From: an uncultured Spirochaetota bacterium
GTDB taxonomy: Bacteria; Spirochaetota; Brevinematia; Brevinematales; JAOACQ01
Direction: 5' to 3'
Assembly (NCBI GenBank): GCA_963783575.1
Contig: CAWAOD010000014.1
Location: forward strand, 256,001 to 320,000
Length of the DNA stretch: 64,000 nucleotides
Every line of letters starts with the position of its first letter. Within the stretch, counting starts at the first letter, position 1. This document shows, in pieces, positions 42,902 to 46,453 of the stretch. Position numbers and translations under genes: made by a program. The notes beneath the pieces were generated by a model, which worked only from the letters and a program-made list of their open reading frames with translations, was not told where the DNA came from and searched no databases.

Positions 42902-43675
42902 ATGAAAATAACTATTAAAAGTATATATGTAATGCTGATTATGTTTCTGGCAGTGTTTAACCTATGGTCTCTTCCTCAGGTAATGGACATAGTAAAACAG
43001 ATTGATGACCACCAGCATCTGGGTTCCGACATTTCCGCAAAGGCGGTTCTTACTCAGCAGAAAGTCGGACAGGGAATTAAAATATTTGAATCAATCTATT
43101 ACAGACGTGATAAAGATGATTCTTTTCTTATTGTAATGACAGCCCCGGATTCTGAAAAAGGCAATGGTTATCTGCGCGTGGGAGATAATTTCTGGATGTA
43201 CCGTCAAAATACAAGAACTTTCCAACATATCAACAGAGATGAAAGTATAAGTGGAACCGATGCAAAAGGCGGTGATCTTGAAACAAGAAAACTTGCCGAT
43301 CTGTATAAACCGGAAGTTGATACAAACAATAAGGAAACCCTTAATGAAGAAATGCTGGGTAAAAAAGAGGTTTATAAATTTACACTTATAGGAAAAGTAA
43401 ATGATGTGACATACCCGAAGCAGATTTATTGGGTCGAAAAATCGACTTTTCTTCCTCTTAAAATTCAATCTTATTCATTATCCGGCACATTAATGCAGTC
43501 GTCATATTACCCGAAATATACAATTGTAAGTGAGAAGTATGTTTTGCTCCAGGGTATTTTTGTTGATGAATTTGAAAAGGGTAATAAAACGATTCTGGAT
43601 CTTTCCGGAATATCATTAACATCAATTGAGGATTCGGTATTTACAAAGGGCTATCTTGAAAATTTGAGTAAATAA
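42902..43675 (+). CDS. Outer membrane lipoprotein-sorting (LolA-like) protein
   Basis: Signal peptide; APDSEKGNGYLRVGDNFWMY, SISGTD, YPKQIYWVEK, FTKGYLE. Confidence 0.8.
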   Translation: MKITIKSIYVMLIMFLAVFNLWSLPQVMDIVKQIDDHQHLGSDISAKAVLTQQKVGQGIKIFESIYYRRDKDDSFLIVMTAPDSEKGNGYLRVGDNFWMYRQNTRTFQHINRDESISGTDAKGGDLETRKLADLYKPEVDTNNKETLNEEMLGKKEVYKFTLIGKVNDVTYPKQIYWVEKSTFLPLKIQSYSLSGTLMQSSYYPKYTIVSEKYVLLQGIFVDEFEKGNKTILDLSGISLTSIEDSVFTKGYLENLSK

Positions 43676-43698
43676 TAAATATTTATAAACAAAATATG

Positions 43699-43721
43699 AA
43701 GGGCTGGGCTTTCCAGCCCTT
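43699..43721 (+). terminator. GC-rich hairpin (terminator- or REP-like) just upstream of the IS insertion site
   Basis: AAGGGCTGG-gcttt-CCAGCCCTT followed by TAAT. Confidence 0.55.
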
Positions 43722-43756
43722 TAATATAATATATAAGGAGGTGGTATGATAAAAAA

Positions 43757-43921
43757 GGTTGAAAAATAAAAGAGCCCGCATCAAAATAGATGAGGGCTCT
43801 GAATAGGACAAAGATCGAATCAATTTGTGGGGATAAACCCCGTTAGGAGTATGATCGAATCCTTGTCCGAACCACCATTTTGAGGATAAACCTCGTATTG
43901 GAGTATGGTAATTTTTCAACC
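43757..43921 (+). ncRNA. Putative IS110 bridge/seek RNA
   Basis: Closing stem GGTTGAAAAAT/ATTTTTCAACC; 5' hairpin 43771-43800; two internal-loop arms, each capped by GG-ATAAA-CC and containing GGAGTATG; loop sequences match the insertion junctions. Confidence 0.75.
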
Positions 43922-43977
43922 GGATTAATATACCACTAAAAGATTCAGGCCTCCCAAATAAATTAGGGAGGAAAACG

Positions 43978-44988
43978 ATGGACGCAAAAAAGTGGATCGG
44001 AATTGATATCCACAAAAAGCAAATTACCGTTTGCATTATTATAGAAAACGGTAAAAAATCAATCAAGCAATATGAGAGAAATGAAAAAGAATTAGCGGAA
44101 TTTGAGAAAGAGATTGACAAAGAAACGATAATCGGGATTGAATCGACAAACTGGACATGGGATTTAATCAAACGGTTAAAAGATAAAGCAAAAGATGCGG
44201 TTATTTTCAATACTATTGATTTAAAAAGATTAATGGATCGATTTAAAAAAACAGACAAGGAAGATGCAGAAAGAATGGCGATTATATTACAAAGATTTGA
44301 AAAAGAAGAGCTAAGTACCTGTCAGATAAGAAGCGACGAAGACGCTGAAATAAGAGGATTATTATCTGTGAGGGAAGAAATGGTTAGCAATAAGAAAAGC
44401 TATAAGACAAAGATAATAGCGATGATGGAGTATTGGGGGATTAAAACCGGAGACAAAATGTTCAACAATTTTGAAAAGAACACAAACTAGGTCAAAGAAC
44501 AAAACATACCTGAGAGTATAAAGAGAGCCGTAATCCAGATGTATGTTATGTTAGAAAATCTCAAAGAAGACATTAAGGTACTGGATAAAGAAACAGAAGC
44601 CTTAAGCATAAAGAGACCCGGATATAATGAGATTAAAGAATTAACGGGAATAGGCACAACAACCGGCGCATACATCATAACGAAGGTAGGCAATATAGAC
44701 CGCTTTAGTACCTCAAAAAAATTTGTATCATATATGGGATTAGCACCAAGAGTTAGTGAAAGTGACGGAAAAGGAACAAATGGTCAAATTACACGAAAAG
44801 TAGACGGTGCTTTTTTAAGGGTCATAGTACAAGCAGCCTGGGTTCGTGTGAGATATGATAAAGAAATGAAATCGTTTTATGAGAATATTCGAACAAGAAG
44901 AGGAAAACAAAAAGCGATCATTGCAGTAGCGAGAAAAATTATTGTGGAAGTATATTATAAGTTGTTGAATCTGAAATCTGAGGCTTGA
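43978..44988 (+). pseudogene. IS110-family transposase/recombinase (336 codons) with one in-frame TAG at 44488-44490
   Basis: WIGIDIHK, IGIEST, KKTDKEDA (DEDD); ORF 44539 is in the same frame with GIG..GNIDRFSTSKKFVSYMGLAPRVSES and KAIIAVARK. Confidence 0.88.
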
Positions 44989-45028
44989 ATCTTAAAATAA
45001 AACTTGACAAATTACATAGGAGTTAATT

Positions 45029-46453
45029 ATGTTTAATAAATCAATATTTTTAATATTTTTTGTTTTAATTGTCACAGGGTATTCATTCTCACAGGATAAT
45101 GTCGACGAATCAAGTCTTTTCGGCGATACAAGCTCGGTTGTCTCAAACAACCAGATAATAAATAATACAGTAACTTCAAATATTGATAAGGAATCGGTTG
45201 CTTTCACGGGAAGCATTATGAGTACGGGGCTTTATTCAATGACAAGAGACTGGGTAAATGGCATTACTAATACCGATTTAAACCAGCTTCAAACATATAT
45301 GCAGGGTAACCTTTTTCTTGATGTAAGACTTACAAAAGGTTTTAAAGCTTTCGCGAATATTGAGGCATTCTATACCTCTCAGGGGCAATTGACTCCTCAT
45401 TATTTTTCCGGTTTATCATTACAAACAAATATCATCACAAATTATGGACCGGCAATAACAAATGTTTCATTATCTACAAATAACATTACTTATTATGAAA
45501 CAAACAATACAATTCTTAGCCTGAAAGAATTCTTTGTGGATGGAAATATCAATCACGCGGCTTACATACGCGCGGGGAAACAGGTTGTTCAATGGGGAGT
45601 TAACTATTTCTGGAATCCGACAGATTTAATAAACATACAAAAAAAGACTTTTACGGATTTGAACAATTACAGGGACGGGAGTTATGGAATGAAAATCCTT
45701 GTTCCTTTTGGAACTGTAATTAACTTATACAGTTTTATAGATTTTACGGATATTCATGATCTGGAAGACACTGCTATTGCTGGAAAATTTGAATTCCTTA
45801 TTGCAAACACAGAATTTTCACTATCAGCCTGGGCAAAACGGAATAATCTTCCTGTGTATGGTTTTGATTTTTCAACAAGATTGTTTACCATAGATATATC
45901 CGGGGAAGCCAGCCTCTCTTACGGCGATAATGGAAAGCTATTGGATCTTAATAATCCGGTTGTTATTAAAAACTATGGACAGACGACTACAAACTATAAT
46001 TTAACACAGATTACAAATACCCTGGTTCCAAAATTCAGCCTTGGATTATCCAGGAGCTTTGATTTTATGAATATCAGCGACAGGATAACAACCCGGCTTG
46101 AGTTTTTTTATAACGGGGCTGGTTATGACAGCAATATTTTAAACGATCCGTATAAGAGATACTCTCTTTTGCAGCAATATAATCTTTACCAGCCTAATTA
46201 TCTTTCAAAATATTATATATCGTTGTTTACAACTTATAACGAATTTATTATACCTGATATGACATTTGCTTTTAACGGGATTATGAATCTTGTCGATTAT
46301 TCTTCAACACTTTATGGCACAATCAGCTATAACCCGCTTTATGATTTTACAATCAGCCTTAATATTTTCGGTTATACTGGGGCGACAAACTGCGAATATA
46401 CATTACAGGGTAATACGCTGGCCGCGAGCATTGTTGCAACCATGACCTTCTGA
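45029..46453 (+). CDS. Putative outer-membrane beta-barrel protein of the ABC/LolA-like operon
   Basis: Signal peptide, DESSLFGD, LKEFFVD..IRAGKQVVQWG..FWNPTDLIN, alternating beta strands, C-terminal Phe. Confidence 0.7.
   Translation: MFNKSIFLIFFVLIVTGYSFSQDNVDESSLFGDTSSVVSNNQIINNTVTSNIDKESVAFTGSIMSTGLYSMTRDWVNGITNTDLNQLQTYMQGNLFLDVRLTKGFKAFANIEAFYTSQGQLTPHYFSGLSLQTNIITNYGPAITNVSLSTNNITYYETNNTILSLKEFFVDGNINHAAYIRAGKQVVQWGVNYFWNPTDLINIQKKTFTDLNNYRDGSYGMKILVPFGTVINLYSFIDFTDIHDLEDTAIAGKFEFLIANTEFSLSAWAKRNNLPVYGFDFSTRLFTIDISGEASLSYGDNGKLLDLNNPVVIKNYGQTTTNYNLTQITNTLVPKFSLGLSRSFDFMNISDRITTRLEFFYNGAGYDSNILNDPYKRYSLLQQYNLYQPNYLSKYYISLFTTYNEFIIPDMTFAFNGIMNLVDYSSTLYGTISYNPLYDFTISLNIFGYTGATNCEYTLQGNTLAASIVATMTF

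Follow-up and report, generated by a model that had tools for sequence, protein, structure and literature searches.

Recombination guided by bridge RNAs of the IS110 family has been in print since 2024 (PMC11208160, PMC11208158), and the bridge RNAs of IS621 and its close relatives are under development as genome-editing tools. For IS621, the guide template used by BridgeRNADesigner reads LLLLLLLCC ... RRRRRCCHH (Durrant 2024 supplement, PMC11208160). In the RNAs of IS1111-type elements, a segment complementary to the top strand precedes one complementary to the bottom strand (Siddiquee 2024, PMC11187229), and the IS1111 group is described as having its non-coding region downstream and subterminal inverted repeats of 7–17 bp (Durrant 2024, PMC11208160). 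A collection of 86 bridge RNA models, many deviating from IS621, has also been presented (bioRxiv 10.64898/2026.10.21.760802).

Here we analysed a stretch of 64,000 nucleotides from an uncultured Spirochaetota bacterium, referred to as the window. A preliminary description, made from the letters of the sequence, had proposed a bridge-RNA-like non-coding RNA at positions 43757–43921. Our analysis indicates that the product of this segment is very probably a bridge RNA, carried by an insertion sequence of the IS110 family that belongs to an ISLin1-like clade.

The insertion sequence and its transposase

The IS110-family insertion sequence occupies positions 43741–45022 of the + strand (1,282 bp), with a left end of 237 nt and a right end of 34 nt. 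These borders are where similarity between the copies in the genome stops, at AGGAG on both sides; six copies are present, 98–100% identical. The transposase gene (43978–44988, + strand, 336 codons) encodes a protein with matches to PF01548 (6.2e-18) and PF02371 (3e-19), both above the curated cut-offs, so that the Pfam test found a DEDD RuvC-like domain followed by a Tnp domain. By its domain content, this is an ordinary IS110-family DEDD transposase, of the same family as IS621, and the earlier suggestion of a new RNA-guided recombinase has to be given up. Its RNA would instead be a new variety among bridge RNAs of the known type, and the system would work like IS621. A phmmer search matched IS621 (8wt6) at 8e-7, in the Tnp domain only. 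Residues D10, E55, D93, D96 and S262 were invariant across 27 transposase homologues; they may correspond to IS621 D11, E60, D102, D105 and S241, the alignment to IS621 having covered the Tnp domain only.

The window copy is interrupted by an in-frame TAG (44488–44490). Two of the six copies (contigs C9 and C16) are intact, with TGG at that codon, and contigs of two other sequencing runs have G at 44489. One copy carries TAA in the transposase gene, and an 11-bp deletion is common to two copies, one of which is additionally split by about 2.5 kb. The insert in the split copy (L006/L007, same genome, C12:18643–22461) lies near element position 1100; a contig from another metagenome ends at 44801, matching this insertion point. 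The RNA of the window copy is identical to that of the intact copies, and the window copy, with its nonsense codon, could therefore be movable in trans.

A hairpin at 43950–43971 (CCUCCC...GGGAGG) masks the transposase's own Shine-Dalgarno sequence, and a counterpart in other letters (UCUCUC/GAGAGA, CCUCUC/GAGAGG and others) was predicted in all seven close relatives. The gene is also flanked by a 14-nt inverted repeat (43940–43953 / 44980–44993, 93% complementary), one half lying just 5′ of the ribosome site and the other across the stop codon. An exact complement of 9–14 nt was kept in five of seven relatives, with letters that were partly different. One possibility is that this repeat forms a long-range stem in the mRNA.

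Structure and conservation of the RNA

Folding and a covariance model placed the RNA at 43757–43921 of the + strand, within the left end. An 11-bp closing stem (43757–43767 with 43911–43921, 11/11 paired) joins the RNA ends around a 5′ hairpin (43771–43800), arm 1 (43806–43868) and arm 2 (43871–43909), all on the + strand. The arms share the caps GGGGAUAAACCCC and GAGGAUAAACCUC, and GGAGUAUG is present twice. The preliminary description had drawn this same architecture, and every part of it was recovered in place. The minimum free energy of the segment was −87.8 kcal/mol, compared with −49.5 ± 4.7 kcal/mol for 200 shuffled sequences (z = −8.2), none of which folded as well.

The four-helix shape was recovered in single folds of seven homologues with 45–87% protein identity to the intact copy, and the covariance model was built from these sequences, each of which takes up the shape when folded alone. 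When RNAalifold was run on a plain MAFFT alignment, misalignment led to wrong pairing in the 5′ hairpin and in the closing stem, and this result was superseded by the single folds and the model. The window RNA scored 196.6 bits when the + strand was searched, against 13.6 bits for the − strand; given this difference and the G-U pairs, the RNA strand is, as read from the sequence, the + strand. The model also detected RNAs upstream of transposases only 25–30% identical, with scores of 58.8, 40.6 and 22.2 bits. A search of Rfam 15 over 43400–45300, with E-values up to 10, gave no match on the RNA, and weak matches only on the upstream terminator.

Covariation was assessed in 11 homologues aligned to the model, an alignment that is biased in favour of the structure by having been fitted to it. 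In this alignment, 88.4% of cells could pair and both sides had changed in 32 of 47 base pairs, a value reached by none of 500 shuffles, while slid controls gave at most 12 such pairs. A conserved two-loop structure with covariation among homologues was what the preliminary description had named as a check on its proposal, and both were found, in the seven similar folds and in the 32 pairs. By its fold and covariation, the RNA predicted at 43757–43921 is very probably real.

The target loop

Arm 1 was compared with the insertion sites of ten elements, ISLin1 among them, that differ in their targets and whose borders are given by multiple copies or an empty site. For each, the ten bases ending at the left junction were taken, and the longest sense match ending exactly there was sought anywhere in the left-end RNA. 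This junction-anchored matching replaced unanchored exact-word matching of whole left ends against junctions, which was too noisy in A/T-rich sequence. The anchored matches were 5, 7, 7, 8, 7, 7, 6, 9, 7 and 7 nt long; in 70 non-cognate control pairs, the mean was 3.99 nt, and matches of at least 6 nt occurred in 7. In all ten elements the left-flank match lay directly after the inner hairpin of arm 1, and none of the ten had a sense copy of the left flank on the 5′ side. The matched words varied from AGGAG-type to CACAGAG, GCTGCG, TGTAAGCGA, TTCATAG and GTGTGTG. Because the cognate matches sit after this hairpin across differing targets, arm 1 is, on these alignments, the target loop.

In the window RNA, the 3′ side of the target loop, GUUAGGAGU (43842–43850, + strand), is a sense copy of the left flank plus an AG core. 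It would correspond to the RTG, core and handshake of IS621 and would pair with the bottom strand. The preliminary description had matched UUAGGAG (43843) to the left flank, a match that is supported by covariation in homologues; in the window family alone, the exact match to the flank is AGGAG only, and 431 of 2000 shuffles were as good, which is not significant. The base preceding AGGAG agrees with the target loop at one of six sites in this genome and disagrees in L036. By reading, the two bases after the target-loop core (the handshake positions) are identical to the two that open the left end; this is so for G001, for G011b, for ISLin1 and for the archaeal element. One of the two agrees in own2 and in L013, and in the window element they agree only if one base is bulged. 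This agreement may hint at a handshake with the first left-end bases.

The 5′ side of the target loop, AUUUGU (43823–43828, + strand), together with the preceding AUCA, corresponds in position to the LTG of IS621. Compared in register with the right flanks at seven sites of the window family, it matched at 0, 5, 3, 3, 5, 2 and 2 of 7 positions, and the positions expected to read the core matched at 0 of 2. These matches were judged to be at about the level of the A/T-rich background, and the earlier pairing of AAUCAAUU with the right flank was not supported. G001, a second Shine-Dalgarno-targeting element with eight sites, gave 1–4 of 7. At two of three ISLin1 sites the 5′ side matched 6/7 together with the core, and at one of two G011b sites it matched 6/7. 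In own2 it matched 2–4 of 7 in the scripted register and, shifted by one base, 7/7 at L034 by reading. A 5′-side guide was found in these three elements and not in the window element. Since the LTG-like 5′ side does not match right flanks in the window family, target choice there seems to rest on about 7 nt.

The donor loop and element ends

The right end (45004–45022, + strand) consists of the −35 box TTGACA (45004–45009), AATTA (45010–45014) and CATAGGAG (45015–45022), the last of which is, by alignment, the left donor half plus the AG core. The 3′ side of arm 2, GUAUUGGAGUA (43895–43905, + strand), is a sense copy of right-end ATAGGAG at 6/7. The single mismatch falls in the window donor word AUUGGAG (43897), for which the match to the right end had been proposed beforehand. 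Support for that match came from five relatives at 45–50% identity: AUAGGAG stands in the donor loop of four and in the left end of the fifth (L009), and the right ends of all five read CATAG or CATAGGAG.

Among other elements, the donor word covaries with the right end: G011b has ATAGAAG, own2 ATAGACG and the archaeal 'Bathy' element ATAGGTG. The donor words AUAGGAG, AUAGAAG, AUAGACG and AUAGGUG pair off with right ends CATAGGAG, CATAGAAG, CATAGACG and CATAGGTG, respectively. Because its 3′ side follows the right end in this way, arm 2 is, as far as these comparisons go, the donor loop.

On the 5′ side of the donor loop, CCAUUUU (43875–43881, + strand), the bases CCAU are able to pair with the start of the left end, GTGG (ATGG in relatives). 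The case for this pairing is weak: AACAU of own2 fits ATGTT, and the 5′ side of ISLin1 does not match its own left end. The preliminary description had read ACCACC (43871) as the reverse complement of junction GGTGGT. This is literally true, but as a guide the word fails, being mostly part of the arm 2 base stem. In relatives these positions are ACCGC and face GCGGU in the stem, a compensatory change, and the left end there is ATGGT; only CCAU against ATGG/GTGG is common to the window element and its close relatives.

Taken over both loops, the 3′ sides vary with the left flank (ten elements) and with the right end, as the guide-target covariation anticipated in the preliminary description would have it. 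A bridge RNA with target- and donor-binding loops, the target loop before the donor loop, was therefore borne out for the 3′ sides: of the four guide registers originally offered, UUAGGAG and AUUGGAG stand, and AAUCAAUU and ACCACC do not.

Core and guide polarity

From the aligned junctions of the six copies, the left target half of the window copy is ATATATA, followed by AGGAG (43736–43740), the two spanning 43729–43740 of the + strand. The last AG of this AGGAG is probably the core. The crossover point within AGGAG is unreadable from the window element and was carried over from the ISLin1 empty site and G011b. The ISLin1 empty site reads ...CATTAT-AG-AAGCGAG, and the occupied site ...TATAG|ATTAGTATGAT ... 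CATAGGAG|AAGCGAG. The core would thus be AG on the transposase-sense strand and CT on the opposite strand, read directly in ISLin1 and G011b and by extension in the window element.

In the ISLin1 target loop, the inner hairpin is preceded by CGCUCU-CU-U and followed by G-UU-UCAU-AG-AU, and the loop would fit the IS621 template exactly if the DNA strand being read were the one opposite the transposase. The left-flank guide was on the 3′ side in ten of ten elements, which is not the IS621-type layout. The preliminary description had suggested a CT core opposite the transposase and guides inverted relative to IS621; the ten-element matches, the ISLin1 empty site and the IS621 template all agree with it. 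Just upstream of a full ISLin1 copy, at L198:111–130, there is a second right-end fragment (...AACATAGGAG, then the same right-flank bases), which suggests a tandem or nested insertion at a repeated target.

Two other elements resemble the window element. The genome itself holds a second IS110-family element, own2, in three copies (L033, L034 and L035; contigs C13, C16 and C5), with 24% protein identity, the same reversed loop layout, the target ...GCTG-CG-GGGAGCA and the right end CATAGACG. An element of a same-genus genome (L012, L015, L018, L021, L023, L025, L027 and L029) has a transposase only 27% identical to that of the window, yet it hardly differs from the window element in its ends, AGGAG|ATGGTATGAT ... 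TTGACATTTATCATAGGAG|, or in its Shine-Dalgarno targets. The alternatives are great age and conservation of donor and target, or an exchange of the ends.

Target sites

The AGGAG at 43736–43740 is the original Shine-Dalgarno sequence of the host gene, and the right end brings in a fresh AGGAG, six bases upstream of the start codon of the host gene (ATG at 45029). AGGAG with an ATG 5–7 nt downstream was found at all six copies in this genome, at all eight copies of the second element in the same-genus genome, in four relatives with known right flanks and in one contig from another metagenome. This placement was shared by every insertion with a readable right flank, a total of about 19 sites. Of the 6,551 AGGAG sites in this genome, 14.8% have an ATG at 5–7 nt, as do 22–26% of WWAGGAG/TAAGGAG sites; two further counts, in which the ATG spacing was taken from an extended pattern, are not comparable with these. 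Because no more than this share of such sites precedes an ATG, a 7-nt guide is insufficient for restriction to start sites, and a further contribution must come from selection after insertion or from some unrecognised way of reading the start region.

An intrinsic terminator (43699–43721) of the upstream LolA-like gene (42902–43675) ends 15 nt before the targeted AGGAG. Since the terminator sits there, the host gene at 45029, cut off from its former promoter, must depend on read-through from the element.

Proposed promoter and mechanism

A −10 box, TATGAT (43745–43750, + strand), with TG two bases upstream, is present in the left end and likewise in relatives. In the integrated state this amounts to a weak TG-extended −10 only (9/12). 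Across a circle junction, TTGACA (45004–45009), 13 nt of right end, GTGG and TATGAT (43745–43750) would follow one another, giving a 17-nt spacer, and the same holds in relatives. The arrangement points to a promoter rebuilt where the right end meets the left end. A search of sequencing runs listed no RNA run that contains the stretch, and among contigs from four DNA runs neither a circle junction nor an empty site was found. Five nucleotides after the captured host AGGAG come an ATG and a 7-codon mini-frame (MIKKVEK, stop; 43746–43769) that runs into the closing stem; this ATG may be without function, because it belongs to the −10 box.

From the loop-flank matches and the conserved fold, which were observed directly, we infer the following course of events. 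In the excised circle, right-end TTGACA and left-end TATGAT, 17 nt apart, would form the promoter, and transcription would start at about 43757, the first base of the closing stem. The RNA would fold into the closing stem, the 5′ hairpin and two internal-loop arms built as in IS621. [quoted passage not shown] The transposase would then exchange strands at the core, CT on the strand opposite its own gene. Because both loops spell xxAGGAG, the element would land on Shine-Dalgarno sequences and leave a fresh AGGAG before the host start codon.

Discussion

The guide role of the loops has to be weighed against a role in expression only. The structure could be a 5′-leader regulator of the transposase with no guide function, the AGGAG of its loops acting as decoy ribosome-binding sites. 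The leader is clearly regulated, as the separate conserved hairpin masking the transposase Shine-Dalgarno sequence in 7/7 relatives shows, and the loop-flank match in the window family is confined to AGGAG. Loop words nevertheless track the flank in elements that do not target AGGAG (CACAGAG, GCTGCG, TGTAAGCGA, TTCATAG, GTGTGTG), and they track the right end as well (ATAGAAG, ATAGACG, ATAGGTG), which would be unexpected of a decoy site; we consider such a regulator without guides very improbable. It is also hard to credit that the element keeps the IS621 layout, with a long left guide on the 5′ side and the transposase-sense strand read, and that the reversed polarity is an artefact of the shared AGGAG. 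The donor of close relatives can be parsed on the + strand as ATA-GGAG-AT-GG-TAT, an IS621-like format. However, the bases after AGGAG at the six target sites are TT, AA, GA, AG, AA and AC, so that an AT core is not common to them; the ISLin1 empty site has only AG(A) in common with the donor; and the left flank has no sense copy on the 5′ sides of the ten elements.

For target choice only, a further explanation is on balance somewhat probable: placement before start codons may result from selection after insertion rather than from recognition by the RNA, copies in genes having been lost and copies that rebuild a ribosome site being harmless. It would account for the fact that 22–26% of the sites available to a guide of about 7 nt precede an ATG at 5–7 nt, yet 6/6 and 8/8 copies do so, and it agrees with a right-flank guide judged to be at background. 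Against it stand the same placement bias in every lineage, over about 19 sites, and the right-flank word predicted for the relatives, AAAATGA, which contains ATG and fits L009 at 6/7, so that some recognition of the start region may play a part.

By inserting at ribosome-binding sites and then rebuilding them, the element would be a tidy case of a mobile element limiting harm to its host. The same RNA architecture, with the polarity of the sites reversed relative to the RNA and transposase genes, would mean that polarity is free to evolve. Natural targeting seemingly by a short 3′-side guide alone would also bear on the 'half-match' off-targets reported for IS621 (bioRxiv 10.64898/2026.08.31.748434). 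The accessible literature describes no bridge RNA aimed at ribosome sites and no reversed guide order in a left-end RNA, although figures and supplements of recent preprints (10.64898/2026.10.21.760802, 10.64898/2026.08.14.744561) may cover both.

The window element is like IS621 (PMC11208160, PMC11208158) in several features. In both, the left end carries the RNA, upstream of the transposase and in the same sense, and a promoter is rebuilt on the circle, here at the level of sequence. The order of 5′ stem-loop, target loop and donor loop is the same, each loop being composed of stem, guide, stem-loop, G and guide; both systems have a two-base core and short inverted ATA/TAT words beside the donor. 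The window element differs in that its CT core is on the opposite strand to the transposase, that a further closing stem of 11 bp links the RNA ends, and that its long 5′-side guide does not match the targets. The proteins are distant, with the phmmer match (8e-7) covering the Tnp domain only.

With IS1111-type seekRNAs (PMC11187229), the window element shares the guide order. Their non-coding region is downstream of the transposase and their subterminal repeats are long, whereas here the region is upstream, in a left end of 237 nt as against 34 nt for the right end, and the repeat, CATA/TATG, measures 4 bp, which sets the element apart from the IS1111 group. ISEc21, as described in the same source, has its non-coding region upstream, as here, but the opposite guide order. 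The ISLin1-like clade would thus combine an IS1111-type guide order with an RNA in the IS110-type place, in an order reversed relative to both IS621 and ISEc21.

In a tblastn search against plasmids, the only named families found were ISLin1 and ISAtu7, with no IS1111-type reference. ISLin1 of Leptospira interrogans, named in ISfinder, has 28% protein identity by tblastn. It has the same left-end RNA layout, right end CATAGGAG, AG core and, as its empty site shows, reversed guide order. Its target, ...TTCAT-AG-AGAGCG..., differs in not being a ribosome-binding site, and its two target guides both match, the 3′ side at 7/7 and the 5′ side at 6/7 plus core. The mycobacterial IS110 elements IS900 and its relatives insert upstream of host start codons, in the interval that follows the ribosome-binding site, and in one orientation; the IS900 transposase is antisense to the target gene, whereas that of the window element is co-directional.

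We tentatively propose, as a plausible but still doubtful synthesis, that the ISLin1-like clade reads its recombination sites opposite its own genes and so represents a third arrangement beside the IS621 and IS1111 types. In its ribosome-site lineages the 5′-side guide would have decayed, leaving a 7-nt Shine-Dalgarno guide alone to direct insertion before start codons, with the site rebuilt behind the element. This would be a natural form of half-site bridge targeting.
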